Assembly: GCA_044222045.1 (NCBI GenBank)
Contig: JBGAOB010000004.1
Coordinates: 1-54,321 of the forward strand
DNA length: 54,321 nt
Direction of reading: 5' to 3'
Origin: Candidatus Eiseniibacteriota bacterium
GTDB lineage: Bacteria; Eisenbacteria; RBG-16-71-46
Under the pieces are notes generated by a model. It ran no database searches. It had not been told where the DNA came from and saw only the letters and a program-made list of their open reading frames with translations. Numbering within the stretch: the first letter of the stretch is position 1; the number at the start of each line of letters is the position of its first letter. The translations under genes were made by a program, and so were the position numbers. This document shows, in pieces, positions 1 to 14,346 of this stretch.

Positions 1-24
1 GCTGGTGTTCGGTCGTCGACCCCA

Positions 25-405
25 TCAGTACGCGCCGATGCGGAAGTCGTTGTAGATGCCGCCGAGATTGCGGACCACGACGCGGAAGTCGCCGCCGCGA
101 GTCACGAAGAACGTGGCGACGCACTCGTCGCTGCTGTCCGTGTCGGAGGCGATCAGGCGACCGAAGCCGTCGTACACGAGGAGATCCAGGTCCGACGTGC
201 CGTCGCCGCTCACCGTGATCTGCGTCCACTCGCCACCGCTGCAGCAGACGTCGAAGCTCCGGCTCGCGAACGCCTCCACGCGGTGATTCCCCCACTCGGC
301 GCCGTTGCACGGATCCGCCGCCGCCCCGCGCGGCATCGCGGCCGAGATCGTCATCGCCGTCACCACCGCCAGCATCGCCACACCGATCGCACGCATCGTC
401 TTCAT
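25..405 (-). CDS. Small secreted stand-alone PPC-like (pre-peptidase C-terminal-type beta-sandwich) protein
   Basis: ATG at 405 with AGGAGG RBS. Signal peptide MKTMRAIGVAMLAVV...AAA. PPC-like motif GDGTSDLDLLVYDGFGRLIASDTD...GDFRVVVRN. Paralog of 4759-5118. Confidence 0.75.
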   Translation of the reverse strand: MKTMRAIGVAMLAVVTAMTISAAMPRGAAADPCNGAEWGNHRVEAFASRSFDVCCSGGEWTQITVSGDGTSDLDLLVYDGFGRLIASDTDSSDECVATFFVTRGGDFRVVVRNLGGIYNDFRIGAY

Positions 406-479
406 CGTTGCCTCCTGGTCGCCGGCCCATCGGGCCGCGGGTCTGGTTCCGGCGCTTCCCACGAGCGCCTTCGCCCCCT

Positions 480-507
480 TCGTTGCGCAGGACGCGACGG
501 TGTGACA
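480..507 (-). promoter_or_regulatory. Putative ECF sigma promoter, copy 1 (TGTCACA-N14-GCAACGA)
   Basis: Minus strand TGTCACAccgtcgcgtcctgcGCAACGA upstream of 25-405. Four more copies have identical spacing. Confidence 0.75.
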
Positions 508-691
508 GCGATCGTGAAAACGGCGCCCGTGTGTGGGCGGAGGCGCTTTTTCATGGGGGAATCCCGCACCGGGCTTGCTAGGCTTCCCGGGCGGGAAAGG
601 CGTCAGCGGGCGTCCGTTCCCCGTTCACAGTCCGGACGTCCGGTGCGCCGGGCGTCACGACCGATGGACATCGACGCCTGGAGCCCTTCCC

Positions 692-3600
692 ATGCGCTTG
701 CGCCAATGGGTGCTCGCCGGCCATTTCGCCGCAGCACTCCTCGCCCTCGCCGCGATCGCCGCCCCCGCGCGTGCCGCACGCACGCTCATCAGCCCGAAGC
801 CGATCGACCGGCCGTACCCGACGTTCGCGGGCATCGTGATCGGCTCGTTCCGCCCGACCTGCAGCCAGGTGACGATTCACGCGGCAAGGCGCTCGGGCGA
901 CGAGCAAGACAGCTGCTGGTACTACCTCTGCGGGGGCACCTTCGACGTGCTGTGCGTGGCCGAATCGGCATCGGTCGCGGCGAACCTCACGGCCGGTGAC
1001 AGCTTCTTCAATGGCCGAAACGCCGATGGGAGCGGGCACAATTCCAATACGCAGAACTTGGACTGGCGGAATCGGACTCTTCCTGTCCGGTGGGAGAGTT
1101 CTCCACGCAACTGGAAACTCTATGGACAGGCTCGCTGGCAGGACGGCCTTCAGCTTCTGAACTACGGTGACTCGGCCACTGTTGTGGTCACGGGCCTCAC
1201 ACCCGGTCTGGCGTACACGCTGTATGGAACGACCAGCCCCATCTCCCCTCCTGGCTACTATGGGGTATGCACCAACCTCATCGCGTGGGTGACCGACGAC
1301 ACCAGTTCGACCGCGTCGCCGTGGCCGGTCGCGCCGGAGGTCTCGCTGCCCGTGCTCGACCTCGGCACTGCCTCGACGATCGATGCCGCGCCGGCACCGG
1401 CTGGTGGCGCGATCTCATGGGGATTCACCTCCGAACCAGGCTATATGTCTCGCATGGACTCGCGCGGCAGGCTGGCCACCTCGAACAGGTTGATTCACTC
1501 CAGCAGTCTCGGGCTCACGGCACCTGGACGTTGGTGCGCGATGACCGACGCACGGGGGAACTCTCTCATCCTTCTCGGTGAGCGTCGGCCCGGATTCGGT
1601 GGCAGCGTCATCGCGGCTCGCCGAGTGGATCCCGAGGGGTACCCACTGCCAGGCTGGCCCTCATCGCCACTTGCGTCAGCACGCGTCGTACTCGACGCAC
1701 AGGAAGACCAAGATGAGCCCACCGCAACTCCGACCTCCGACGGCGGCGCCATCCTCGCGTGGGCCGACACGCGGCATGCGCCGGGGACGCGTACCTGGCA
1801 GCTTCACAGCTCGGTCTTCGCCGAAGATGTCTACTCTCTCGATCGAGCCGACCTGGATGGCGACGGTGACGACGAAGTGATCTCCGTGCAGATCTCGCGT
1901 GACAGCCTCGAGATCTTCGACGTGCGGCAGGGAGCACTTGCGAAAGTGGTGACGTTGCCGACACGCCACAACCCCTATGCCTGTCGATCTGCGGATCTGA
2001 ACAACGACGGGCTCCCCGACCTCGTCGTCGCGTGTGGCAACAGCGACTCGCTCGATCTCTTCCTCAGCACGTCGACGCCGTTCGGCTTCACGCACTCGTG
2101 GCGAGGAAGCGCGGGGCGCGCTGTCGACCTCCGTCTCGTCGACGTGAACAACGACGGCCTCCTGGACATCGTGCACACTCGCCCGGCCGACAGCACCGTC
2201 GTGGTGCGGCGCGGCCTCGGCGGTGGCACGTTCACTCCGCCCAGTGCATACAAGACGCCCGGCGAGCCGCAGTTCCTCGCCACGGGAGACTTCGACGGCG
2301 ACGGGCTCGTCGATCTCGCCGTGCTCAGTTACCTGACACCAGGCATCGTCCGCGCGTTTCGGAATCTCGGCGGAGGCGTATTCGCCGCTGCCGGGGACCG
2401 CCAGGTCGGCTCGATTTCGCACGCGATCGTCGCGGGCCAGTTCGACGGGGATTCGCGGGACGACGTGGCCGTTGCGCCCGGACTGGGAGGAACGAGCACC
2501 GCGATGCAGATCCTGCACGGCGGCAGCTCCGGCAACCTGCTCGGTGGCGGGACTTCAACCCTCACACTCTCAGGAAAGCCTTACACGCTCGTGGCGGACG
2601 ACTTCGATCGGGACGGCTGGGTCGACATCGCCGCCGCGTACGCGTCGAGTCCGTCGGCCCCTCAGATCTGCTGGGGATCTCCCCTGGGGCCGGACGCGGC
2701 GGTAGGACTTCCCACATACGCTCGAGCGGCCTGCATCGTGGCGGCCGATCTCGACGGAGACGGAACAGGCGAGATCCTTCACCCGGACGCGAATGGCGAC
2801 AATGCCGAGCTCCTAGTCCTCCGGAACGTCAAGACGCGCCGAGACATCTACGCGCTTCGTGTCCAACCCGACGGCACACCCGCGACAGGCTGGCCGACGG
2901 CGGGGCTCGCGCTCGCCACCGACGGCAGCGACGTGACCCATCTGCACATCGCGCCCGATGGCGCGGATGGCGCATACGTGGCCTTCGACCGCGTCGAGCC
3001 GCTCTATGGTGGCGCATGGATCCAACACGTGCGCTCGAACGGTGTGCTTGCCGCCGGCTGGCCCGACTCGAGCGCGGGAGGTGCCCCCGTCGACCTCTCG
3101 CCCGCGACCCACCGGGTGGAGGACCTCGTGCGCGGAAACACGGATGTCGCCGGCAACGGTGGCGCCACGGTGGCGTTCCTGACCGACGTGGGTGACCCGT
3201 GGTTCCAGGAGGCGCGCGTCGCGCGCATCAGTGGCGCGGGAACGGTCTCGTGGATGCTCAGCCTCGGAGACGGTTCCTTCCCCCGGCTCGCACGCTGGCC
3301 CGACGGTTCGGTGCAGGTGGTGTGGCGCAGCGTGGGGGGCGCATTGAGAACAACCCGCCTGACCGCGACGGGAGCTGCACAACCGGGGTGGGCACTCTCG
3401 GGTGTTCTGCTTTCCGCGAGCGCCGACTCCGTTCCGGCCGCTGCCGCGCTCTCCGACTCGGCGCACGTGATGATTGCGTGGAGCGAGCCGACGGGCGTCC
3501 GCGTCCGGCGGTTCGGCGCCGACGCGGTCACGGGCACGTGGGCCGCGTCCATCGCGGTTATGGTCGAGCCTTCGACCCGCATGATCATCGTTCCGGGCAC

Positions 3601-4609
3601 GGAAGGCGCCGGCATCCTCGTCGCGAGCACGGCGACCGAGGTCGTCGCGCAGAGACTCGACCCGGCCGGCGCGCTGGGCGACCTGTCACCGGCCCTCGAT
3701 CGCGCCACCGACTGGCGCGCGGACCAGGGCGGCATCGTGCGCGTGAGTTGGCTGCCCTCACAGCTCGAGCGCTCCACCGCATTCGCAAGCCATGGCGGGC
3801 TCTACCGTCTCTACACGGTAGCCGCGAACGGCACTCGCACGCTCGTGAGCACGAAGGTGTCGGGCTCGGGGTGTTCGTACTGGGCCGACATTGCCGTGCC
3901 CGGGGTGGCCCGGGCTGCGGAAGGTGCCGTGGCGCCGTTCACCGTGTTCGAGCTCGAAACCTTCGATCCCGTCACGGGCGAATCCCGCCTCGCCCCGCGC
4001 GACAGCGCCTTCTCGGTCGATGATATCCCGCCGCCTGCCCCAACCGCATTCAGCTCCGCATTCACCGCGAGCGGACCGGGAACCGGCATCACCGAGTTCG
4101 ACTGGACCCCGACGCCGGTCGGCGATCTCGCGGAGTACCGGATCTTCGGCAGCCCGGATTCGCTGTTCTGGTCGCACATGACGACGACGCCCGCACCGGC
4201 CTCGCACGCCAACGCCCCGACGCCCGCGGGGAGGATGTTCTTCCGGCTCTACGCCGCGGACATCCACGGCAATACGAGCGCGCCGGCTTCGCCGGTGTTC
4301 CAGCTCGGCGCACCCGGAACCGGCGCCCCACTCACCCTGTCCTTCGCCCCGCCCTCGCCGAGCCCCGCCCGCACGAGCACGCGGATGCGGCTCTCGCTTC
4401 CCGCGCGCGCGCAGGTCGAGCTCACCGCATTCGACCTGCTCGGTCGGCGCGTGCGGCGCATCGCGGAGGGCGAGCGCTCCGCCGGCCTGTACGACCTGTC
4501 CTGGGACCTGCGCGATGACGAAGGGCGGGCGCTCGCGCCGGGGCTCTACCTGGTTCGCCTTCGCACCCAGGGTCACGAGTTCCGCCATCGCGTCCTCGTC
4601 GTTCGATAG
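692..4609 (+). CDS. Large secreted FG-GAP/VCBS repeat protein with propeller-like repeats and C-terminal FlgD-Ig (T9SS-like sorting) domain
   Basis: Signal peptide MRLRQWVLAG...ARA. Several ADLDGDG/DLNNDG/GDFDGDG repeats. C-terminal PSPARTST...FDLLGRRVR...WDLRDDEGRALAPGLYLVRL. Confidence 0.85.
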   Translation: MRLRQWVLAGHFAAALLALAAIAAPARAARTLISPKPIDRPYPTFAGIVIGSFRPTCSQVTIHAARRSGDEQDSCWYYLCGGTFDVLCVAESASVAANLTAGDSFFNGRNADGSGHNSNTQNLDWRNRTLPVRWESSPRNWKLYGQARWQDGLQLLNYGDSATVVVTGLTPGLAYTLYGTTSPISPPGYYGVCTNLIAWVTDDTSSTASPWPVAPEVSLPVLDLGTASTIDAAPAPAGGAISWGFTSEPGYMSRMDSRGRLATSNRLIHSSSLGLTAPGRWCAMTDARGNSLILLGERRPGFGGSVIAARRVDPEGYPLPGWPSSPLASARVVLDAQEDQDEPTATPTSDGGAILAWADTRHAPGTRTWQLHSSVFAEDVYSLDRADLDGDGDDEVISVQISRDSLEIFDVRQGALAKVVTLPTRHNPYACRSADLNNDGLPDLVVACGNSDSLDLFLSTSTPFGFTHSWRGSAGRAVDLRLVDVNNDGLLDIVHTRPADSTVVVRRGLGGGTFTPPSAYKTPGEPQFLATGDFDGDGLVDLAVLSYLTPGIVRAFRNLGGGVFAAAGDRQVGSISHAIVAGQFDGDSRDDVAVAPGLGGTSTAMQILHGGSSGNLLGGGTSTLTLSGKPYTLVADDFDRDGWVDIAAAYASSPSAPQICWGSPLGPDAAVGLPTYARAACIVAADLDGDGTGEILHPDANGDNAELLVLRNVKTRRDIYALRVQPDGTPATGWPTAGLALATDGSDVTHLHIAPDGADGAYVAFDRVEPLYGGAWIQHVRSNGVLAAGWPDSSAGGAPVDLSPATHRVEDLVRGNTDVAGNGGATVAFLTDVGDPWFQEARVARISGAGTVSWMLSLGDGSFPRLARWPDGSVQVVWRSVGGALRTTRLTATGAAQPGWALSGVLLSASADSVPAAAALSDSAHVMIAWSEPTGVRVRRFGADAVTGTWAASIAVMVEPSTRMIIVPGTEGAGILVASTATEVVAQRLDPAGALGDLSPALDRATDWRADQGGIVRVSWLPSQLERSTAFASHGGLYRLYTVAANGTRTLVSTKVSGSGCSYWADIAVPGVARAAEGAVAPFTVFELETFDPVTGESRLAPRDSAFSVDDIPPPAPTAFSSAFTASGPGTGITEFDWTPTPVGDLAEYRIFGSPDSLFWSHMTTTPAPASHANAPTPAGRMFFRLYAADIHGNTSAPASPVFQLGAPGTGAPLTLSFAPPSPSPARTSTRMRLSLPARAQVELTAFDLLGRRVRRIAEGERSAGLYDLSWDLRDDEGRALAPGLYLVRLRTQGHEFRHRVLVVR

Positions 4610-4626
4610 CCCCCGGACGAGCCGAA

Positions 4627-4653
4627 GCCCCGCCGGGGATCTCCCGGCGGGGC
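4627..4653. terminator. GC-rich hairpin between convergent genes (possible terminator)
   Basis: gccccgccggg-gatct-cccggcggggc, a perfect 11-bp stem. No strong U-tract. Confidence 0.45.
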
Positions 4654-4758
4654 GAGGGGCCCGACCTCCACGTCAGCGGGTCGCGGGGCCGCGCCGCTCT
4701 CGTCGCACTCGGCGTGGGGCGGCTCCTCCTTTCCGGTGCGCCCACGCACCGGCGGGAA

Positions 4759-5118
4759 TCACCGCGCCGTGATCCGGTACTCGTTCCAGACGGACCCGCG
4801 GTTGTCGACCTCGATGCGATAGCTGCCGCCGCGCGGCACGTAGAACCGCGTGATGCACACGTCGGTGTCGTCGTCGTCCGACGCGATCATGCGGCCGCTC
4901 TCGTCGTACACGTACAGATCGAGATCGGTGTCGTGGTCGCCGATCACGGTCACGCTCGCGTACTCGCCGCCGCGGAACGACACGTTGAACGCATCCTCCG
5001 ACCACGCGTTCACGCGGTGCACACCCGTCTGCGTCCCTCCCCAGGGACCCGCCACCGCCGCCTGCGCCACCGCCACCACCACCAGCACCGCCGGCACGAT
5101 TCCGTTGATCTTGCGCAT
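4759..5118 (-). CDS. Small secreted stand-alone PPC-like protein (paralog of 25-405)
   Basis: AGGAGG RBS and signal peptide. GDHDTDLDLYVYDESGRMIASDDDDTDVC...GGSYRIEVDNRG aligns by eye with 25-405. Confidence 0.8.
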   Translation of the reverse strand: MRKINGIVPAVLVVVAVAQAAVAGPWGGTQTGVHRVNAWSEDAFNVSFRGGEYASVTVIGDHDTDLDLYVYDESGRMIASDDDDTDVCITRFYVPRGGSYRIEVDNRGSVWNEYRITAR

Positions 5119-5194
5119 CGTCTACCTCCTGTCGGTGAGCCCGATGGGCTCGTGGTCTTCGTTCCGGCGCTCCGTCCGAGCGCCTTCACACCGT

Positions 5195-5222
5195 TCGTTG
5201 CTCGACCCGGCGGGCTGTGACA
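5195..5222 (-). promoter_or_regulatory. Putative ECF sigma promoter, copy 2
   Basis: Minus strand TGTCACAgcccgccgggtcgaGCAACGA. Confidence 0.75.
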
Positions 5223-5301
5223 TCGGAGTTCCCCGCGCGCCACGAACCGCGGTCGCGCCGCCGATGGAGTGGTGGACGGCGGCGCCGCAGGCACGAGACA
5301 C

Positions 5302-5335
5302 GAAGAAGCGGACCGGCCGCATGGGCCGATCCGCT
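5302..5335 (-). terminator. Putative intrinsic terminator after the Cys-rich precursor gene
   Basis: Minus strand hairpin agcggatcggcc-catgc-ggccggtccgct followed by TCTTC. Confidence 0.5.
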
Positions 5336-5365
5336 CCTCGTACCGAGCTCCGCTTGCCGCGCGGG

Positions 5366-5734
5366 TCAGTCGCCGTGGCGCAGGTGGCGCAGTCCCTCGC
5401 GCCAGGGATGCACGCGGGCCCCGCGACAGTCGCTGCCCTCGCAGTCGCCCGCGGCGCGCGCGGCGCGACAGTCGCCCGTATCGCAGACCCGCGGGCGGGC
5501 GACCCGGCCGCGACAGTCGCTGCCCTCGCAGTCGCCGCGGGCCGATGCGACCGCCGCCGCCGCAGGCGCGCTCCCGGCGAAGCACGGATCCGTATCGCAT
5601 TCGCCGCGAACGACAACCACCACCGTGGCCGGTGCAGGGGTCTCGATGCACGGATCCGTCTCGCAGCTCCGTCCCGGGCCGGCCATCGCCACGAGCCCCA
5701 GTCCCAGCGCCAATCCCATCACGATCGCTTTCAT
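5366..5734 (-). CDS. Secreted Cys-rich repeat peptide (122 aa) with five C-x4-C motifs; possible multi-core peptide precursor
   Basis: AAGGAGGT RBS and ATG at 5734. Signal peptide MKAIVMGLALGLGLVAMA. Cores CETDPC, CDTDPC, CEGSDC, CDTGDC, CEGSDC. A 29-bp exact DNA repeat lies at 5421-5449 and 5508-5536. Confidence 0.75.
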   Translation of the reverse strand: MKAIVMGLALGLGLVAMAGPGRSCETDPCIETPAPATVVVVVRGECDTDPCFAGSAPAAAAVASARGDCEGSDCRGRVARPRVCDTGDCRAARAAGDCEGSDCRGARVHPWREGLRHLRHGD

Positions 5735-5795
5735 CCGCCACCTCCTTCGTTCGAGTGTCCGCCGTGGATCCGGCGGCCCGTTGCCGCCGCCCGCT

Positions 5796-5823
5796 TCGTT
5801 GCCCGGAGCCCCCGCGTGTGAAA
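5796..5823 (-). promoter_or_regulatory. Putative ECF sigma promoter, copy 3
   Basis: Minus strand TTTCACAcgcgggggctccggGCAACGA (one mismatch in the -35 element). Confidence 0.7.
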
Positions 5824-5835
5824 CCCCGTCCGGCG

Positions 5836-6210
5836 CTAGTTCACGTTCAGCGACACGGCGGCAGGCACGTCGCTGTCGTTCTCGACCGTGATCTCCACGC
5901 GTCCGCCCCCCTGCGCGGCGCCCCCGACGACGTCCGCACCCGTGTACGCGCCCTCGGCGGCCAGCGAGCCCGAGGCGTCGAAGACCCGGACCTCCATGCC
6001 CACGGTGACGAGCCCCGGGCTGCACGCGACGGCCCACGTGCCGTCGTGCGCGAACGTCTGCCCGACCACGACCCGCTCGCCCGGATTCACCGAGCGCGTG
6101 TTGAGCGCGGTCGCGAGGATGTCCTCCGCCATGCACCCCGTGAGCGAAGCGCCGATCAGCCCCGCCAGCACCAGCGCCACCGCCGCCCGCATCGCCTTCC
6201 CCTTCGCCAT
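5836..6210 (-). CDS. Small lipoprotein, predicted all-beta, possibly a distant PPC-like domain
   Basis: GGAGGT RBS and ATG at 6210. Lipobox SLTG-C. MEVRVFDASGSLAAE...GRVEITVEN resembles the PPC-like paralogs. Confidence 0.7.
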   Translation of the reverse strand: MAKGKAMRAAVALVLAGLIGASLTGCMAEDILATALNTRSVNPGERVVVGQTFAHDGTWAVACSPGLVTVGMEVRVFDASGSLAAEGAYTGADVVGGAAQGGGRVEITVENDSDVPAAVSLNVN

Positions 6211-6281
6211 GCCGCACCTCCCGTTCGAGGGCGGGCACCGCGCGCCGTCCGGGGCGCGGCGTCTCCGCCAGTACACCCCGG

Positions 6282-6309
6282 TCGTTGCGCCCACCGGCCG
6301 CGTGTGACA
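6282..6309 (-). promoter_or_regulatory. Putative ECF sigma promoter, copy 4
   Basis: Minus strand TGTCACAcgcggccggtgggcGCAACGA. Confidence 0.75.
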
Positions 6310-6411
6310 CGTCGACTGCCGATGGTTTTCGTTGACCCTGTCGCACGCACTTCCCTAGGCTCCCGCCCCACGCGCCGCGCCAACCCGGCCGGCGGGAGGC
6401 CCGCTCAGACC

Positions 6412-6993
6412 GTGACGGAACCCATCGCCGCCCGAGACGAACAGCGCATCGCGTCCGAAGCCCGCGCCTGGTACATCGCCTTCTTCGAGCGGCGTGTCGG
6501 TGCGCGGGGTCGCGACCTCGCAGACGACCTCGCGCAGGAAGCGGCCATCGGCCTGCTGCGCGCCCTGCGCGCGACCGGTGCCGACTCGATCGAGGCCCTG
6601 CGCGCGACCATCGGAACGCGTACGTGGTTCGGCTTCCTGCGCCGCGAGTACCGGTGGAAGAAGGTCTGGGACGACACCGCCGTCGAGGAGACGGACGCGC
6701 CCGCGCCGCCCGCGACGCAGCCCGGAGCCCACCTGCGCGTGGGTGATCCGGGCGAGCGGCTCCGATTCCAGGTGCTCGAGTTCTATCGCGCCCACAACGC
6801 GAAGTGCCTGGGGCTCGCCGAGCTCTTCTTTGGCGGCGTGGACTGGATGGACGCCGCCTCGCGGCTGAACCTGGGGTACGCCGCCATCCGCCAACAGTGG
6901 TCCCGTTGCCTCAAGCTGTTGCGCGAAGTCGTGACCCGCGACGAGGACCTGCGCGACTCGCTCTGGTCCTTCTGGGGCGACAGCGATGCCTGA
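6412..6993 (+). CDS. Divergent ECF-type RNA polymerase sigma factor
   Basis: Region 2 motif DLADDLAQEA and region 4 HTH FFGGVDWMDAASRLNLGYAAIRQQWSRCLKLLR. Start uncertain: GTG 6412 after GGAGG, or ATG 6322. Confidence 0.75.
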   Translation: MTEPIAARDEQRIASEARAWYIAFFERRVGARGRDLADDLAQEAAIGLLRALRATGADSIEALRATIGTRTWFGFLRREYRWKKVWDDTAVEETDAPAPPATQPGAHLRVGDPGERLRFQVLEFYRAHNAKCLGLAELFFGGVDWMDAASRLNLGYAAIRQQWSRCLKLLREVVTRDEDLRDSLWSFWGDSDA

Positions 6994-6997
6994 CGCC

Positions 6998-7025
6998 CGT
7001 CACAGCGAAGCCCGCCGCGCAACGA
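6998..7025 (+). promoter_or_regulatory. Putative ECF sigma promoter, copy 5, upstream of anti-sigma/protease
   Basis: Plus strand CGTCACAgcgaagcccgccgcGCAACGA immediately after the sigma stop codon. Confidence 0.7.
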
Positions 7026-7146
7026 TGCTGGGGAGGGGCCGGGGAGTCGGGGGCGCTCGCGGCGGAAGCGTCACCCGGTGCACGGGGCGCACGTCCGTGG
7101 ATCCACCACGTCGGCGCGGCCCTGCAGAGGCCCTTGAGGTCAGCGA

Positions 7147-8106
7147 ATGAACGACACGCGAACGCCTTCGGACGGCCCGCCGCCGGCCGACCACGCCTGG
7201 GTGCTCAGCCGGCTGGCCCCCTACTGGGCGGGACTGCTGGAGGACTCGGCGAACGAGCGCGTCGAGTCCCACGTCGCCTCGTGCGAGCCGTGCCGGCGCG
7301 CATGGGAGGCGCAATCCGCGACGCCAGCGTTCGCGCCGGGCACCGAAGCGCACGTACCGGCCGCGCTCGTGGCGGACTGGGAGCGCCAGCAACGCACGCT
7401 GCGCGGGCTCGAACGAGCCACGATCCGCCATCATCTCGAACGCTGCGACGACTGCCGTCGCGACCTCGTGGCACTCGGTCACGAGCCCGTGCTGGAGTTC
7501 ATCGCGGCGCTGGAGCCCGAAGGCATGATGCCGCGGGCCACGCCTTCGCCCGCCGCGGCGCGGCGAACGGAGCGACCGACGGCGATGGACCACGCGCTCG
7601 ACCGCCTGCGTCGTTTCAACTGGGTCCTCGGAAGCTGGGCCGCACTCGCCACGAGCGCTGCCGCGGTGATGACGTTCGTCCTGTTGCGCGGTGGAGCGCC
7701 GATTCCGGAGGGCACGCTGCCGCAACCCGGATTCGGCGGGCCGGGCACGACGAGCATCACCTCCGGGGCGTTCCCCTCGGTGGAAGCCGCCGTCACGCTC
7801 GTGCTGCAGCCGGATGCGCCCGGCGAGGGACCGGTCGCGCTCACCCCGGCCATGTCGCCGCGACGGGTGATCGCGCTGCAGGTGCGAGGTCTGACCGCCG
7901 CGCCCCGCGACAGCCTCGCGTTCGTGATCGAGCAGGGCTCGCGCACCGTCGTCCGGCAGTCGCTGCGGGCGAAGCTCGCCGCGGATTCGGTGTTCACGGT
8001 GATCCTGCGCGGAGCGCCGACAGCGCTGCCGCCGGGGGCCTACCGGCTTCTCGTCGGGGATGCCGCCGGAGAGAGGGCGTATGTCTTCCGAATCGCGGAG
8101 CACTGA
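7147..8106 (+). CDS. Membrane anti-sigma factor with two tandem zf-HC2 (ZAS) zinc fingers
   Basis: HVASCEPC and HLERCDDC (Hx3Cx2C). One TM helix WVLGSWAALATSAAAVMTFVLL, then an extracytoplasmic beta-rich domain. Lies downstream of the sigma gene. Confidence 0.8.
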   Translation: MNDTRTPSDGPPPADHAWVLSRLAPYWAGLLEDSANERVESHVASCEPCRRAWEAQSATPAFAPGTEAHVPAALVADWERQQRTLRGLERATIRHHLERCDDCRRDLVALGHEPVLEFIAALEPEGMMPRATPSPAAARRTERPTAMDHALDRLRRFNWVLGSWAALATSAAAVMTFVLLRGGAPIPEGTLPQPGFGGPGTTSITSGAFPSVEAAVTLVLQPDAPGEGPVALTPAMSPRRVIALQVRGLTAAPRDSLAFVIEQGSRTVVRQSLRAKLAADSVFTVILRGAPTALPPGAYRLLVGDAAGERAYVFRIAEH

Positions 8107-10114
8107 GCGCACGCGAAGCTCCCGACGGGTCGCGGCGTGCCTCGGCCTGGGAATGAGCCTCACGCTCACGCTCACGCTGGCCGACGGTGTCGGTTCGGCG
8201 GGGCCCGTCCGGCTCGTGCGTCCCGGCGCGACGATCGAGCTTCGACATGCGCCCGCGGGGACGGGGTCGCTCGTCGGCCTGCCGTTCGTTCGCGCCCTGC
8301 GGGCGGGCAACGCGCCGAAACGCCCTGAGGCCGAGGGCGACGACCGCCTCGTCGCCTACCACGTCGAGTTCGCCGACGCGGCCAGCTGCAACCGGTACGC
8401 ACCGCCCGGAGCGACGGTATTCCATCGCTTCGAGCGATTTGCCGGCGTGTTCGTGTCGACGGACCGAATCGACGACCTCGTCCAGGCCACGCTGCATGCG
8501 CCCGGTTTCCGCGCGATCGAGGACGACGACATCGCCCAGCTCCCGCCACGCCCCCGACCGAGGACCGCACCGCCCTCGAAGGCGGTACCCGAGAACATCG
8601 TCCGCGGCGGGCTCGCCGGGCGCACGGGACGCGGCACGCTCGTCGGCGTCGTGGACACCGGCGTCGACTTCCGGCACGGCGACTTCGTTTCGGAATCGCC
8701 CGAGGGTCCCCGCTCGCGCATCGTGGCGTACTGGGACACCGGCCTGCCGTTCGATCCGGGGCGCGGCATCGGACGTCCCGGTCCCATCGCGTACCCGAAT
8801 GGCCAACCCGTGGGCACGGTGTTCACGGAGGCCGAGCTCACTCGCGCCCTGCGAAGCGGCGGACTCGACGATCTCGTCGATCACATCGGGCACGGCACGG
8901 CCTGCGCCGGGATCGCCGCGGGCAACGGGCGCAGCCTCAAGAGCACGCGCGAGGTGATGGGGGTGGCTCCCGGCGCCGCGCTGATCGTCGTGCGCGCCCA
9001 GACCTCGGACGAGCTCCCCGGGCTCTCGAACTTCGTGATCACTCCCGCGGTCCGATGGATGAGCGCCTTGGCCGACTCGCTGCGCCGCCCGCTCGTCGTG
9101 TCGTGCTCGTTCGGTCAGCAGATCGGCCTGCACGACGGCAGTCGGCTGATCGAACGCGAACTGGAAGCCCTGCTGCCGGACGGTGCGTCCGGGCGGGCAC
9201 TCGTCGTGTCCGCGGGCAACGACGGCACGCGGCCGGTGCACGCACGCATGGCGCTCGGCGCAAAGCCGCAGCTGCTCGAATGGCGTTGCAGCGACGGCGA
9301 CGCGCTGCTCGAGCTGCACGTGAGGACCCGCGACTCGAGCGTGGTGCGGGCCGCGGTCGCCGTTCGCTCCGACAACCGCCCGTCCGACATCGCGAACTAC
9401 CCGCTCGCGCCCGTCGTGAAAGGCTCGGCCTGGCAGATCGTGCGGTTCCGTGTCGCGGGCGACATCGGCGGCATCTATCTCTGGTCGAAAACTCCGGGCG
9501 TGCCGGTCGAGGCCTACATCTCGGGTGGGGAGTTCGCCACCCGGTTCACGGTGCAGACAGGCACCGTGGCGAGCCCGGGTACGTGCCGCGCGGCGATCAC
9601 GGTGGGGAGTTACGACTGGAACGACATGTTCGATCAGAAGGGGCTCGGCCCGACGACACTCTTCAACGCGTGTTCGGAGACACCCATCGAAATCGGAGCG
9701 CTCTCGTGTTACTCCAGTCGAGGCTTCGTGCACCGTCGGCTGGTGAAGCCCGACCTCGTCGCACCCGGGCAGTGGTTCACGGCGCCCGTGTCTCTCCTCG
9801 CACCCGAAAGGCCCGCCGGGCTCGGCATGGCTTCCGCGGGGGTGTACGAAGGCCTGCACGGATCGGGGCACTACCGCTGGTTCAACGGCACGAGCGCCGC
9901 CGCGCCGTACGTGGCCGGCGTCGTGGCGCTGGCGCTCGAGCGCGACCCGCGTCTCACACTCGGTTCACTTCGAGACCGGCTGCGCGCGAGTCTCACGCGG
10001 GACTCGACGACCGGCCCGGTGCCCAACCCGGCGTGGGGGTACGGCCGGCTCGACCTCGCCGCCGTGAAGCGCTTCCTCGGAGCCGGGGTGCGGGCCACGC
10101 CGCGCGATCATTGA
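8081..10114 (+). CDS. Secreted subtilisin-family S8 serine peptidase with inserted beta-domain (CspA-like architecture)
   Basis: Catalytic triad VVDTG, HGTACAGIAAG, GTSAAAPYVAG and oxyanion SAGND. N-terminal hydrophobic stretch. Overlaps the anti-sigma 3' end; start uncertain. Confidence 0.9.
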   Translation: MSSESRSTERTRSSRRVAACLGLGMSLTLTLTLADGVGSAGPVRLVRPGATIELRHAPAGTGSLVGLPFVRALRAGNAPKRPEAEGDDRLVAYHVEFADAASCNRYAPPGATVFHRFERFAGVFVSTDRIDDLVQATLHAPGFRAIEDDDIAQLPPRPRPRTAPPSKAVPENIVRGGLAGRTGRGTLVGVVDTGVDFRHGDFVSESPEGPRSRIVAYWDTGLPFDPGRGIGRPGPIAYPNGQPVGTVFTEAELTRALRSGGLDDLVDHIGHGTACAGIAAGNGRSLKSTREVMGVAPGAALIVVRAQTSDELPGLSNFVITPAVRWMSALADSLRRPLVVSCSFGQQIGLHDGSRLIERELEALLPDGASGRALVVSAGNDGTRPVHARMALGAKPQLLEWRCSDGDALLELHVRTRDSSVVRAAVAVRSDNRPSDIANYPLAPVVKGSAWQIVRFRVAGDIGGIYLWSKTPGVPVEAYISGGEFATRFTVQTGTVASPGTCRAAITVGSYDWNDMFDQKGLGPTTLFNACSETPIEIGALSCYSSRGFVHRRLVKPDLVAPGQWFTAPVSLLAPERPAGLGMASAGVYEGLHGSGHYRWFNGTSAAAPYVAGVVALALERDPRLTLGSLRDRLRASLTRDSTTGPVPNPAWGYGRLDLAAVKRFLGAGVRATPRDH

Positions 10115-10121
10115 CGACTGT

Positions 10122-11582
10122 TCATCGCAGCAGGACGACGGACGTCGATCGCCGCTGGCGCGCGGCTTCCAGCACCGCGAAATAGACACCGGGTCGTACC
10201 ACGCGACCGTCCGCCCCTCGCGTATCCCAGGTCGCTTGCCTCGGCCCCGGTGACAGATCCGCGTCGAGAACCGTCGCCACGGTCGCGCCGGCCACGTCCA
10301 GGACCCGCAATCGAACGGGACCCTGAACCGGCAGCGCGAACTGGAATCGAATCGGCGCACCGACCCGGGCCGGGTTCGCGGCGGGCTGGAGGAGCAAGGT
10401 CGCCGCCGATTCTCTGCGCTCGACGTCCACCTGCGCACCACACTGGAACGGCGTCGCCCAGCACACACCGGAAAGTGCCGGGGCATTCGTCGACCGAACG
10501 ATCGTGAGTTGCTCCGGCGGCCCATCGCGCTGAATGGTGTAGCCCGCCCCTGGACAGGCCTGCTGGAGACACGGCCAGCTGCACGCCCAGTCCGAACCGG
10601 TCCACACGCAGTTCCACACGCAGAGGGAGGTCGGAGAGGGGACCTGGAATCGCTGGGTTTGTCCGGCCGGGATCGTCGACGAGTTGGCGCCGACGGAAAC
10701 CAACACGCTCCCCGAGTAGGCATTCGTCACCGAGATGGTGCAGGCGCGACACGCCACGGGCAGGTCCGGCCACACGGCCGGGAACTCCGACGCAATCGGA
10801 GCCGATCGGCGTGTGGACGAAACGTCGGTTGGCATCGACGAACCACACGCCGAGGGCGCGGAAACTCCCCAGAAGAACGGCGGGTGTCCCGGGTAGGGGG
10901 ACTCCACGGACCACCACCCGGTGACGACGTACTGGGCGCCCGCCGTGAGTCCGGTCAGGATCAGGCGGGCTCGCGCGGTGTCGCAAGGGGCGGCCGAAAC
11001 CGCGGTCGATGCGGCGAATCGCAGGCAGCGCGAACCGTTCACGAACGCCACGGATGCCCCGGGCCCCGTGCGCCAGCCGTCCGCGAACCAGTCCCCGGCG
11101 AAGTCCTCGTCGAGCACCGGCGTTCCACCGCTGGAGTAGCACCAGTTGTGGTAGAGCGGGTTGCCATTGGCGTCCGTCACATTCGGACAACGCGTACAGA
11201 CGGGATTGCTTCGGAGATCCCCGTAGCGTTGAACGAGGATGTCGTCGATGCCGATCACGCCGTACGACGTGCCGGTGGAGGACGTGAGCTTCACGGCCAG
11301 ATCGACGAACACCGTGCAGCCGGGCGCGAAGAAGTAGAGCGGGTCCTGCATCTGGCACCAGTCGATGGCCGGATACGGGCGGTCGATCGGCCGCATGGGC
11401 ACGAGAGTCCGTTCCGCGCGTGCAGAAACGGCGCCCACGAAGAGGGCGATCGCGACGCCGACCGCCGCCGCGACGCGCACCGCGTGCTCGAGGAGATGGC
11501 CGCCGGGCTCACGATGCGCGCGGCGGACCCACGAGTGATTTCCGACGATGACCGCGGCGGAGTCGTGGAAGCGATGGTGCAC
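10122..11582 (-). CDS. Secreted Cys/Trp-rich protein with C-terminal FlgD-Ig domain
   Basis: GAGGAGG RBS before GTG. Hydrophobic signal-like region ending ARA. C-terminal ANPARVG...LDVAGATVA...WDTRGADGRVVRPGVYF. Confidence 0.75.
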   Translation of the reverse strand: MHHRFHDSAAVIVGNHSWVRRAHREPGGHLLEHAVRVAAAVGVAIALFVGAVSARAERTLVPMRPIDRPYPAIDWCQMQDPLYFFAPGCTVFVDLAVKLTSSTGTSYGVIGIDDILVQRYGDLRSNPVCTRCPNVTDANGNPLYHNWCYSSGGTPVLDEDFAGDWFADGWRTGPGASVAFVNGSRCLRFAASTAVSAAPCDTARARLILTGLTAGAQYVVTGWWSVESPYPGHPPFFWGVSAPSACGSSMPTDVSSTRRSAPIASEFPAVWPDLPVACRACTISVTNAYSGSVLVSVGANSSTIPAGQTQRFQVPSPTSLCVWNCVWTGSDWACSWPCLQQACPGAGYTIQRDGPPEQLTIVRSTNAPALSGVCWATPFQCGAQVDVERRESAATLLLQPAANPARVGAPIRFQFALPVQGPVRLRVLDVAGATVATVLDADLSPGPRQATWDTRGADGRVVRPGVYFAVLEAARQRRSTSVVLLR

Positions 11583-11942
11583 GCGCCCTCCTCGGTTCGG
11601 GTGAGGAACAGCCGCGCCGCCGCCGGGGGTGCGCAGGCGCCGATGGACACATCGGGAACCGGGGGATGCCCGATGGACTGTATGGAGCCCGCAGGCGTCC
11701 TGTCGAGATCAGAGTCGTCGTGCACGCGTGATCGCACCCTGGGTCACGCGCCACCGAGGGGGCTGCGGCGCGGCGCGATCGAAGCCGCGTGGCCGTGGCC
11801 CTCGCGCCGCCAGCATGTTCGTTGCAGCCGCGGCTTCGCCCCGGCCCTGACCGGGCGTATCGTCCGCGGCGCCCCCGGGCACCACCCGCGCGAGCGCCGT
11901 GCTCGCGCACCGGTCGTGACCGCCGCACGGGAGGGCGCGCCG

Positions 11943-12542
11943 ATGGCCGCCGAGTCCGAGAAGCCCGCCTGGCCACTGATGGTGATGGCCGTCGCGTCGT
12001 TCGTGCCGTGCCTGGGCTTCGCATTCGCCTCGGCCACGGTGTCGTGGGCGCTGGTCGCCCCGCGGCGCCATGCGCGCGTCGCCATGGTCGTCGCCGTGGT
12101 CGGAGCGTTGCTGAACCTCGGGTTCGCGATCGTGGTCGGCTCGGCGTGGCTGGCGAAGCACCCGCTCCCCACGCCGGAGCCCGGCTCGGACATGCTGGTG
12201 AAGACGCAGCAGCACCTGGACCTCACCGCCGAGCGAATCGAAGAGTACCGCGCGGCGCACGGGGTGTACCCCGACTCGCTCGGGCAGATGCTGGTGCCGA
12301 TGGGCGCGCCCGCGGACTCGGGCCACATTCCCGTCGACACGTCGAAGATCTTCCCGCCGGTGGACCCGCTCTCGTACGCGGCGGGACGCCCGCGACTGTT
12401 CACCTACGTCGTGTCGCCCGACCGCCAGCAGTACGACCTCCTTTCCCCCGGCCGGGACGGCAGGACGCCCAGCTCCGACGACATGCGCCCGATGCTCTCG
12501 CCCGAGGTGCGGAAGCGGTCCGGCTACCAGCCGGGGCTCTGA
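11943..12542 (+). CDS. Membrane protein with type II secretion pseudopilin GspG-like C-terminal domain
   Basis: N-terminal TM helices. IEEYRAAHGVYPDSL...DP...YDLLSPGRDGRTPSSDD matches T2SSG motifs. Confidence 0.65.
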   Translation: MAAESEKPAWPLMVMAVASFVPCLGFAFASATVSWALVAPRRHARVAMVVAVVGALLNLGFAIVVGSAWLAKHPLPTPEPGSDMLVKTQQHLDLTAERIEEYRAAHGVYPDSLGQMLVPMGAPADSGHIPVDTSKIFPPVDPLSYAAGRPRLFTYVVSPDRQQYDLLSPGRDGRTPSSDDMRPMLSPEVRKRSGYQPGL

Positions 12543-12672
12543 CCTGGAGCGAGCGGCGGCAGCGAAACCGCGCCCCGTCGGGAGACCGCTGCCGTCTTGC
12601 GGGGCCGCGGGGCCGACCCTACTCTCCGTCGCTGCTTCCGCTGGTCTCCCGACAACACTTCGCGAAAGGACG

Positions 12673-14346
12673 ATGACGGTGTCCTCGCCCCGCTGGTCCG
12701 CTCTGTTGCCCGCCGCGCTCGCGGCCTTCGCTCTCGCTGGTTGCTCCCGGGACGGCGCCGAACTCGCGCGCGTCGGCGACCGCGTCGTCACGCAGGCCGA
12801 GTTCGTGGACGTGGCGCGCGACAAGGAATCGCAGTACCCCGGCGACGACGCCACCGCCAAGAAGGGGCTGCTCGAGGACATCATCCGGCGCGAGCTGCTG
12901 CTGCAGGTGGCGCTCCGGCGCGGCGACGACACCACGGCGATCGCGCGCGGCTTCCGCGAGAAGCTCGAGCGCGAGGTGCTCACGATGGGCCTGGTGGACG
13001 AGCTGTCCCCGCAGGCCGTGGGCGTGAGCGACGCCGAGGTGAAGGCGCTGTACGAGGCGCGCCGCAACGTCGTGGACGTGTCGCTCATCTTCACCACCGA
13101 CACGGGGCTGCTGCGGCTGGCGATCGCCGACCTCGCGCGCGGCATGCCGTTCGCCGAAGTGGCCAACCGCACGAACAGCCCCGGCATGCTGCCGCCGGCC
13201 GGCGCGCTGGGCCCGATGATGCCGGGCCAGCTCGTGCCGCCGCTGGACGCCGAGATGGTGAAGCTGCCCGTGGGCGGCGTGGGCGGGCCGTACGAGACGC
13301 CACAGGGCTGGTTCCTGATGAAGGTGAACGGCCGCCAGGAGCACGAGCAGGCGCCGCTCGCGACGCAGCAGTCGATGCTGGCCGAGGCGATCCGCCAGCG
13401 GAAGCAGCGCCAGGCGCTCACCACGCGGCTCGCCGACCTGCGCTCCGCCTACCACGTGACGCCGGCGCCGGGTGGCGGGCAGGCGCTGTTCGAGCTGCTG
13501 CAGCCGAGCCGCGTCGACGAACCCGTCGACCTGGCGGGCGCCAACCGCAAGCAGGTGCTCGCGCGCTGGGACGGCGGCGTGTACACGCTGGGCGACGCGA
13601 TCAAGGACCTGTCGGCCGAGCGCGAGCGTCCGCCGGCGGCGATGCTGCCCGCGCTGGAGGGCTGGATCGAGAACCAGGTGATGGCGCGTGTGTCGCTGGC
13701 CGAGGCGAAGCGCCGCCACATCGGGGACAAGCCCGCCGTCGCGCGCCAGCTGCGCGGCCGCTGGGAGGAGTTCCTGCTCGAGGGCGTGTACTCCACGATC
13801 ATCGCGGAGATGCCGCCGGCGTCGCCCGAACAGGCACGCGCGTTCTACGACGGCGCGAAGAGCCAGTTCGCGCGCCTGCAGAGCGCGCACGTGTACCGGC
13901 TGCTCACGCCGGACTCGACGGTGGCGTTCCAGGTGGCACGTCACGGCGGCCACGCGGGCACGCTCAAGGAGTCCGCGGCGATGGTGGACCCGAAGCTGGT
14001 GGTCGAGGAGCTGAACGTCTCGTACCCGAACCCCGACCGCGAGTGGGCGATGCTCGAGGCCACGCTGCTGCGCATGCCGAACGGCGAGTGGGAAGGCCCG
14101 GTGCAGACCCCGACCGGCTGGCGGATCCTGCAGCTGATCGACCGCACGTCCGCCACGCCGTCGTTCGAGCAGCTCGACCCGGGCCTGCAGCAGCGCATCG
14201 TGGCGATGGCCTCCGAGATGGATCGCGACCGCAAGCTCGTGGCGTACAGCGACTCGTTGCGCACGACGTCGCGCGTGGCGGTGAACGACGCGAACCTCGC
14301 GCGCGCCCCGTGGCCGGCGCCGCGCATCATCGCGGTCGGCCCGTGA
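12673..14346 (+). CDS. PpiC/parvulin-type peptidyl-prolyl isomerase lipoprotein (PrsA/SurA-like)
   Basis: Lipobox LAG-C and a SurA-N-like region. Two parvulin-like segments (FAEVA...GALG...GPYETPQGWFLMK; GPVQTPTGWRILQ). Confidence 0.8.
   Translation: MTVSSPRWSALLPAALAAFALAGCSRDGAELARVGDRVVTQAEFVDVARDKESQYPGDDATAKKGLLEDIIRRELLLQVALRRGDDTTAIARGFREKLEREVLTMGLVDELSPQAVGVSDAEVKALYEARRNVVDVSLIFTTDTGLLRLAIADLARGMPFAEVANRTNSPGMLPPAGALGPMMPGQLVPPLDAEMVKLPVGGVGGPYETPQGWFLMKVNGRQEHEQAPLATQQSMLAEAIRQRKQRQALTTRLADLRSAYHVTPAPGGGQALFELLQPSRVDEPVDLAGANRKQVLARWDGGVYTLGDAIKDLSAERERPPAAMLPALEGWIENQVMARVSLAEAKRRHIGDKPAVARQLRGRWEEFLLEGVYSTIIAEMPPASPEQARAFYDGAKSQFARLQSAHVYRLLTPDSTVAFQVARHGGHAGTLKESAAMVDPKLVVEELNVSYPNPDREWAMLEATLLRMPNGEWEGPVQTPTGWRILQLIDRTSATPSFEQLDPGLQQRIVAMASEMDRDRKLVAYSDSLRTTSRVAVNDANLARAPWPAPRIIAVGP

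Follow-up and report, generated by a model that had tools for sequence, protein, structure and literature searches.

The window analyzed here, a stretch of 54,321 nucleotides (nt) from a Candidatus Eiseniibacteriota bacterium (assembly GCA_044222045.1, contig JBGAOB010000004.1, positions 1 to 54,321), contains five copies of the bipartite motif TGTCACA-N14-GCAACGA between positions 480 and 7025. We assign a probability of roughly 0.85 to the reading that these are the cognate promoters of a sigma factor of the extracytoplasmic function (ECF) type, encoded among them at 6412-6993. The reading is built from sequence comparison and structure prediction: the sites themselves, their uniqueness in the genome, their strict spacing, the conservation of the motif beside homologues of the sigma, and the ECF membership of the protein by profile and fold. 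In bacterial signalling, pairs of an ECF sigma and its anti-sigma make up the third major mode, and synthetic biology favours them when orthogonal switches are needed. To our knowledge, the phylum Eisenbacteria has neither a cultured member nor described regulators, and the window provides a complete, compact and computationally well-supported set of sigma, anti-sigma and promoters from it.

All five sites are intergenic by our gene calls, and each faces the next gene. Site scores were calculated with a matrix for the whole sigma family, which accepts A as well as G within the -10 box. Sites 1 (480-507), 2 (5195-5222) and 4 (6282-6309), all on the minus strand, have the exact consensus and score 23.5 each. 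Site 3 (5796-5823, minus strand) has the variant TTTCACA and scores 16.3, and site 5 (6998-7025, plus strand) has the variant CGTCACA and scores 22.5. Measured between the end of GCAACGA and the start codon, sites 1 and 2 lie 74 and 76 nt before the ATG of the genes for secreted proteins A and B, respectively, site 3 lies 61 nt before the gene for a Cys-rich protein, and site 4, which is divergent from the sigma gene, 71 nt before a lipoprotein gene. Site 5 starts 5 nt past the sigma stop codon and precedes the ATG of the anti-sigma gene by 121 nt. Our rescan reproduced the coordinates and strands of the original prediction exactly, as well as its description of intergenic, gene-facing sites about 60-120 nt before a gene (61-121 nt in our count), with spacers that are unrelated in sequence and 14 nt long every time.

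The motif is rare by any of the counts that we made. At up to one mismatch, the window contains exactly five matches, compared to a mean of 0.01 in 100 dinucleotide-preserving shuffles, none of which reached five. The source assembly (G000 in the following; the window lies on its contig C175) comprises 439 contigs with 4,899,655 bases and 72.3% G+C, and is about 84% complete. A scan of the whole genome had been proposed as a check, with equal frequency of the motif elsewhere as the outcome that would speak against it. At zero or one mismatch, the five sites of the window, which all fall within at most 6.5 kb around the sigma gene, turned out to be the only matches in the 4.9 Mb, and no further members were found; at two mismatches, there were twelve further, scattered matches. 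Taken singly, the heptamers occur 743 (GCAACGA) and 42 (TGTCACA) times on both strands, and are thus too common for the rarity of each half to account for the five-site pattern.

The distance between the boxes is strictly kept. Across G000, the pattern GTCACA-Nx-[GA]C[AG]AC[GT]A gave five exact matches for x = 14, and none or one for each other x from 8 to 23. Between G000 and a congener from the same genus (G001), the boxes are fixed and the spacers have changed: the spacer of site 4 differs at 7 of 14 positions between identical boxes, and site 3 has TGTCACA in G001. The same type of picture was seen in a public sludge run, which contains a contig of a related strain with about 92% identity. 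Among the changes listed for it, substitutions at 5810, 5815 and 7009 fall in spacers, a deletion/insertion pair at 6295/6298 leaves the spacer length unchanged, and the sole box change, at 5822, turns TTTCACA of site 3 into the consensus TGTCACA. This strain resembles G001 and is not independent of it.

Two of the target genes are paralogous and have similar leaders, as would be expected if the sites were leftovers of a local duplication, carried along with the genes and without a regulatory role. However, beyond the leaders of genes A and B, spacers and flanks are unrelated, and boxes and distance alone are kept; moreover, three of the five downstream genes are mutually unrelated, and in other genera the same boxes are found before unrelated genes. 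The duplication explanation is disfavoured, and we regard it as barely credible.

Homologues of the sigma are 95% identical within the genus and 40-45% identical in other genera of Candidatus Eisenbacteria. In a survey of the phylum, 75 of 206 genomes had a match at E ≤ 1e-10, with a gap between about 57 family matches at 80 bits or more and generic ECFs at 40-60 bits (one genome, G038, was counted in the homologue tallies only and is outside all alignments, matrices and locus counts). We scored 28 loci with sigma homologues from genomes other than G000 and G001, of about 3.5 kb each and 95,084 bases altogether. A matrix trained on the five sites of the window only gave 26 hits at a score of at least 12, compared to 3 in the reversed sequence, and placed a same-strand hit upstream of the sigma in 13 of the 28 loci. 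After refinement, the matrix identified 53 sites in 23 of the 28 loci (6 in the reversed control), with the logo nGTCACAc-N13-(G/A)CGAC(G/T)A. When the distance between the boxes was allowed to vary, 34 hits with a score of at least 17 had a spacer of 14 nt; any other length from 10 to 19 nt gave 0-3 hits, and the reversed control gave none at N14.

To have its own bipartite motif upstream is the classical mark of an autoregulated ECF sigma gene. At a score of at least 15, the refined matrix found a site on the strand of the sigma, no more than 450 nt upstream of it, in 19 of 28 loci, a count that is somewhat optimistic because the matrix was fitted on the same loci (the unfitted count being the 13 of 28 given above), and a same-strand upstream site at any distance in 20 of 28 loci, from 9 of 12 genera. 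Other layouts were also seen, with a divergent site in nine loci and a site about 1 kb downstream in three. Because the motif accompanies sigma homologues across genera, it is most likely the cognate promoter of this sigma, and the earlier suggestion that the sites are promoters for the neighbouring sigma gains comparative support.

Serial arrangement of sites was found in one genus (g22; loci L057, L058, L062 and L063), where sites lie about 300 and about 780 nt upstream of the sigma, the distal one leading to a gene for a lipoprotein of 83-89 amino acids (aa) and the proximal one to the sigma. Small lipoproteins are recurring targets within the sigma family. In two loci from different genera (L005 of G012 and L006 of G010), the leader word CTGTGATTGCGTGC is kept immediately before the sigma ATG.

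The motif could in principle be read by another factor, either an ECF sigma encoded elsewhere or a DNA-binding regulator, with the neighbouring sigma being there by coincidence. The genome is about 84% complete and has other ECF-like genes (generic matches at 40-60 bits and a paralogue of the sigma on contig C374), and ECF41 sigmas use the same -35 box, according to excerpts of PMC3426412. Nevertheless, it is homologues of this particular sigma that the motif accompanies in 9 of 12 other genera, and the C374 paralogue has no site nearby. With the sigma protein as the query, only two family matches were found in G000, in a search not aimed at ECF41-type sigmas with a SnoaL fusion. The halves of the motif are dissimilar, directional and located 61-121 nt before start codons, which is promoter-like and not what a dimeric regulator site would look like. 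We consider a reader other than the neighbouring sigma improbable. As a guide to specificity, the C374 paralogue was set aside, since it has no motif copy nearby and lies directly behind a coding gene.

The protein encoded at 6412-6993 (plus strand, 193 aa) is a very divergent ECF sigma factor, as judged from profile and model. A profile from a 12-sequence alignment matched full-length ECF sigmas in the PDB, among them Mycobacterium tuberculosis SigE (E = 6.5e-11, profile positions 11-177, 45 bits); the ECF41 member SigJ matched with E = 2e-3 and 20.5 bits. An AlphaFold2 model from the same alignment (mean predicted local distance difference test score, pLDDT, 75.7; predicted template modelling score, pTM, 0.43) has sigma2 helices at 7-89, a disordered linker at 92-110, sigma4 helices at 113-191, and no further domain. 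Sigma2 and sigma4 alone, joined by a short linker, are what defines the ECF (group 4) sigmas, and an anti-sigma is co-encoded as well. The top Foldseek matches of the model were ECF sigmas (SigL, SigH, sigmaE/RseA and AlgU/MucA), with probabilities of 0.99-1.00 and E-values of only 4e-3 to 3e-2; E-values this weak are no surprise where a flexible linker joins two domains. In a rough FastTree phylogeny, the G000/G001 sigma is on a long branch.

Several results have to be counted on the other side. Six of the 28 loci lack any site at a score of at least 15. By single-sequence searches, for which the sigma is too divergent, it matched Sigma70_r2 of Pfam with E = 0.0047 and 17.1 bits, missing the cut-off of 24, had no match to Pfam region 4, and reached 16 bits against TIGR02937, where the cut-off is 42.9. 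With the curated cut-offs missed, it is the family profile and the predicted fold that carry the assignment to the ECF sigmas.

The sigma4 cysteines C132 and C166, one of them in an RKQWSRC motif, are invariant in the 12-sequence alignment; in a larger alignment of 30 sequences, one sequence lacks both. A redox or metal role is conceivable.

The gene downstream of site 5 (7147-8106, plus strand) encodes a membrane anti-sigma with two complete H...HxxxCxxC zinc motifs in its N-terminal part (7147-7500). The protein passed the Pfam zf-HC2 cut-off (38.7 bits versus 22.2), and its zinc ligands, H16/H42/C46/C49 and H69/H96/C100/C103, are all invariant in 16 aligned sequences from several genera. 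Pairing of sigma and anti-sigma is kept in the related loci wherever an anti-sigma open reading frame (ORF) was recovered. Among the distinct ORFs beside family sigmas, 26 of 29 have two HxxxCxxC motifs, 51-58 residues apart, and one of the three others is a mis-called ORF of 10 aa. The tandem zinc motif was also found at L041-L070 and from C374:7250 onward in G000.

We predicted the complex of sigma and anti-sigma and obtained a score of 0.63, compared to 0.00 for the best of three controls, although the score may reflect the model's memory of solved ECF/anti-sigma complexes. Of 80 solved complexes, 58 reach the mark for this score, as do 2 of 110 mismatched pairs; this calibration is rough, with our own alignments and two zinc ions riding along. 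At least 64% of the contacts were common to the runs, and the pLDDT of the partner was 75 or more. The confident contacts connect anti-sigma residues 68-110 with sigma residues 39-53 and 110-124/173-180, so that the second zinc repeat, and not the first, touches the sigma in the prediction. The model supports binding between the two proteins.

The anti-sigma resembles the class I zinc-binding anti-sigma factors (RsrA, ChrR, RslA and RsiW; PMC7406223) in having Hx3Cx2C in the N-terminal cytoplasmic domain with an upstream His as the fourth ligand, in the transmembrane segment and outer domain that come after it, and in its predicted location between sigma2 and sigma4. It differs from them by having two tandem copies of the whole four-ligand motif, at a distance of about 53 residues. 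Anti-sigma factors with tandem zinc motifs came up neither in excerpts of the survey PMC7406223 nor in our literature search, which is a thin basis for novelty.

Many ECF promoters read GGAAC-N16/17-CGTC. When the motif is written as GTCAC-N16-CGAC, with CAAC in the genus of G000 and G001, it has ordinary ECF geometry. According to excerpts of Wecke et al. (2012; PMC3426412), ECF41 promoters read TGTCACA-n16(±1)-CGTC and serve a sigma with a fused C-terminal domain, and the TGTCACA -35 element is called "specific for group ECF41". As the Eisenbacteria sigma family shows, TGTCACA is not exclusive to ECF41. As far as those excerpts go, the likeness extends to the identical heptamer, the bipartite layout with a fixed spacer, and the very small regulon adjoining the sigma gene. 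The -10 element, however, is different: it is CAAC here (CGAC in the family) and lies 15 nt after the heptamer, whereas ECF41 has CGTC after 16 ± 1 nt. In full, the five sites read GCAACGA after N14, and those of the family (G/A)CGAC(G/T)A.

Unlike ECF41 sigmas, the protein of 193 aa has no fused C-terminal (SnoaL-like) extension, with sigma4 reaching residue 191 and no extra Pfam domain. It shows no greater sequence similarity to SigJ (20.5 bits) than to SigE (45 bits), and no COE-type neighbour gene is present. The locus encodes a membrane anti-sigma, and we know of no ECF41 sigma with such a partner. The original prediction had separated the system from ECF41 by the -10 box and the missing extension; this separation stands, and is reinforced by the anti-sigma and by the lack of special kinship with SigJ. 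Its further proposal of a distinct promoter specificity stands as far as the difference from ECF41 is concerned; with an ordinary ECF geometry, the specificity would be only moderately distinct. Our literature search found no paper on Eisenbacteria sigma factors, and none with this motif outside ECF41. The group models and motif tables of the ECF classification 2.0, which are found in supplements and on the ECF Hub, may already cover the family or the motif.

Within the family, the change in the -10 box is clean and lineage-specific. At the third position of the core, 51 of 53 family sites have G, and A is found in 5 of 5 sites of G000 and in 5 of 5 of G001. Relative to residues on which 80% or more of the other 28 sequences agree, the G000/G001 sigma has the changes W14A, R24F, R54A, D74G and F125Y. 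The changes in sigma2, R54A and D74G, may cause the A/G preference in the -10 box. Such a lineage-specific change would be usable for mapping specificity residues.

The arrangement of the sites around the sigma gene also differs from that in most relatives. As originally described, there is no copy upstream of the sigma, and one copy (site 5) lies between sigma and anti-sigma. On the plus strand of 6150-6440, no position reaches a score of 2 with the A/G-tolerant matrix, compared to 16.3-23.5 at the real sites; the best scores in random 291-nt pieces of G000 have a median of -0.4, a 90th percentile of 4.9 and a 99th percentile of 10.6. Thus, of the two cognate promoters in a sigmaE-type dual feedback, the one upstream of the anti-sigma is present and the one upstream of the sigma is not. 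G001 is wired in the same way, with no site before the sigma, and a site immediately after the sigma stop codon was seen in none of the 28 loci from outside the genus. From this pattern, the original prediction had proposed negative feedback instead of the usual positive autoregulation. The pattern is real and unlike that of most relatives; the functional consequence, feedback without positive autoregulation, would follow from it, and we give it somewhat better than even odds.

In place of a cognate site, the sigma gene has a candidate promoter of the housekeeping type, TTGACC-N18-TAGGCT, at 6332-6361 on the plus strand. G000 and G001 have the same hexamers (6332-6337 and 6356-6361) and differ at bases of the spacer between them. 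A -35-like TGTCGCA (TGTCACA in G001) at 6339-6345 overlaps this candidate and has no -10 partner. We read the region as a probable housekeeping-type promoter and, possibly, what is left of an autoregulatory site that was lost. This part of the proposal has its own weaknesses. The candidate is weak by the Escherichia coli consensus and rests on two close genomes, and a scan of 1-8300 for sigma70-type sites, which used the E. coli consensus, returned 0 promoter-like sites. Terminator-like sites in 1-8300 were no more frequent than expected by chance (four versus 2.2), and none was found between the sigma and anti-sigma genes, so that basal read-through into the anti-sigma gene is likely and its expression would not be exclusively sigma-dependent.

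The five sites could also be real ECF promoters without any difference in wiring, if the sigma were autoregulated through a degenerate site or by another route. The -35-like TGTCGCA is found 66 nt upstream of the sigma start, -10 elements of ECF promoters are in some cases short and degenerate (in ECF41, TGTT or CGTC according to excerpts of PMC3426412), and the six related loci without a detectable site show that misses occur. On the other hand, the sequence 14 nt downstream of TGTCGCA, CTCCCGC, is unlike every -10 variant among the 53 family sites, the best score in the 290-nt stretch upstream of the sigma is below 2 and hence under the 90th percentile of the genome (4.9), and the pattern without autoregulation is identical in G001, with a similar layout arising independently in another genome, G124. 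Hidden autoregulation appears rather unlikely to us.

The G124 locus (L071; G124:C269:4000-20000) has eight sites in 13 kb (897-13070) around its sigma homologue. Sites on the left of the sigma are on the minus strand and those on the right on the plus strand, so that none is located upstream of the sigma on the same strand. The -10 box is CCGACGA in 6 of the 8 sites. Two anti-sigma-like genes follow in a row, the first adjacent and without a site, the second behind a site with a score of 20.0. Because the G124 sigma is not sister to that of G000/G001 in the tree, a layout with the upstream site lost and the anti-sigma site kept seems to have arisen at least twice in the family.

Known circuits contain both parts of this arrangement. 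In E. coli rpoE-rseABC, as described in excerpts of Rhodius et al. (2006; PMC1312014), a cognate sigma promoter directly upstream of the gene for the membrane-spanning anti-sigma provides negative feedback, as we propose here; a sigmaE promoter is also present upstream of rpoE and provides positive autoregulation, the arm that is missing here. RseA has no zinc motif (PMC7406223), whereas the present anti-sigma has two. ECF32 and ECF203 likewise have no cognate promoter before the sigma gene, but no conserved promoter motif is reported for them in excerpts of Casas-Pastor et al. (2021; PMC7826278). The Eisenbacteria family is mostly autoregulated, and it is only in G000/G001 and the one G124 locus that the upstream site was lost and the regulon kept. 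Since a sigmaE promoter before rseA and the non-autoregulated ECF32 and ECF203 were already known, the circuit is best described as a variant of known designs, and not as categorically new.

Transcription from the sites, their reading by the sigma, the signal and the behaviour of the circuit are what we infer from this arrangement. In the five promoters, GTCACA would serve as -35 and (G)CAACGA as -10 element, spaced as is usual for ECF promoters (GTCAC-N16-CAAC). The sigma gene, without a cognate site, would be expressed at a basal level, probably from the housekeeping-type promoter, and the zinc-finger anti-sigma would keep its product inactive at the membrane. Some signal, probably related to the envelope, would free the sigma, and RNA polymerase with the freed sigma would transcribe from the five promoters. 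Four single-gene units would yield small exported proteins (two PPC-like paralogues, PPC being the pre-peptidase C-terminal domain, the Cys-rich protein and the lipoprotein), and the fifth promoter would drive an operon of the anti-sigma and a secreted subtilase. Induction would raise the inhibitor and not the sigma; as the sigma gene would not be induced, the response should be self-limiting.

Three features go beyond an ordinary ECF system: the -10 change, the loss of autoregulation with anti-sigma induction kept, and the duplicated zinc motif of the anti-sigma. None of them overturns current understanding. A joint reading, which we offer tentatively and hold to be well short of an even chance, would have an unclassified Eisenbacteria ECF group with a tandem double-zinc anti-sigma, the second repeat clamping sigma2/sigma4 and the first free as a separate sensor or second binding module. 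In one genus, all five promoters would have gone from CGAC to CAAC in co-evolution with changes in sigma2, R54A and D74G among them, and the circuit would have been rewired to pure negative feedback. If true, this would be a natural example of promoter/sigma re-tuning and a change of circuit topology in one step.

The candidate target genes encode mostly small proteins without assigned families. Secreted protein A (25-405, minus strand, 126 aa), the target of site 1, had no Pfam or NCBIfam match and is a paralogue of secreted protein B (4759-5118, minus strand, 119 aa; 44-48% identity), the target of site 2. Protein B is weakly PPC-like, matching PF04151 with E = 5.7e-4 and 21.1 bits, under the cut-off of 25.9; its Atlas feature matches (0.96-0.98) were to clusters of about 120 aa, in one of which 18% of the members carry PPC. 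Site 3 faces the gene for the Cys-rich secreted protein (5366-5734, minus strand, 122 aa), which has repeated motifs of the C-x-[TS]-D-x-C type, no Pfam or NCBIfam family, and a best Atlas match of 0.81 that is a lead only, with no informative relative. The predicted lipoprotein downstream of site 4 (5836-6210, minus strand, 124 aa) has an LTGC lipobox and no Pfam or NCBIfam family. The gene for the subtilase (Peptidase_S8; about 8081-10114, plus strand) is probably co-transcribed with the anti-sigma gene from site 5, because its start overlaps the 3' end of that gene. With the subtilase and two small proteins resembling stand-alone PPC domains, the regulon theme is possibly protease-centred.

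A further gene of the region, for an FG-GAP/FlgD_ig protein of 1305 aa (692-4609, plus strand), lacks a site. Its product and the G001 counterpart are only 55% identical, compared to 93-97% for neighbouring genes, as might be seen with a fast-evolving surface protein or a replacement.

Leaders and other repeats were also inspected. The leaders of the paralogous genes A and B (406-479 and 5119-5194, both on the minus strand) have a common hairpin, GGCGCUCG-loop-(G)AGCGCC, followed by GGAAC. Folding z-scores of the leader hairpins downstream of sites 1-5 were 0.38, -2.22, -0.38, -2.07 and -0.41, which is not distinctive at 72% GC, and an Rfam search of 1-10200 found no family at E ≤ 1. A family-type exact site at C332:2911-2938 lies within an ORF, near its end, and was taken as a probable chance match. 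A search of sequencing runs listed none recorded as RNA with raw reads; the one run labelled RNA-Seq (X20) resembles DNA contigs over short pieces and was set aside as a source of transcription starts or expression.

Identical pieces of window positions 1-8300 (8 pieces, 0 differences) are present in activated-sludge contigs of a separate study, which means that the organism occurs in more than a single data set. Finally, G000 contains a second repeat, ACACCC-about 11 nt-GGCAACGAACGAAG, with 9 sites at up to one mismatch, two of them in tandem 60-nt units (places: C27:10769-11016, C29:302, C332:2525-2654 and C59:3431). This element has the GCAACGA core in common with the five sites and another upstream half, and may be another promoter class or a small repeat.

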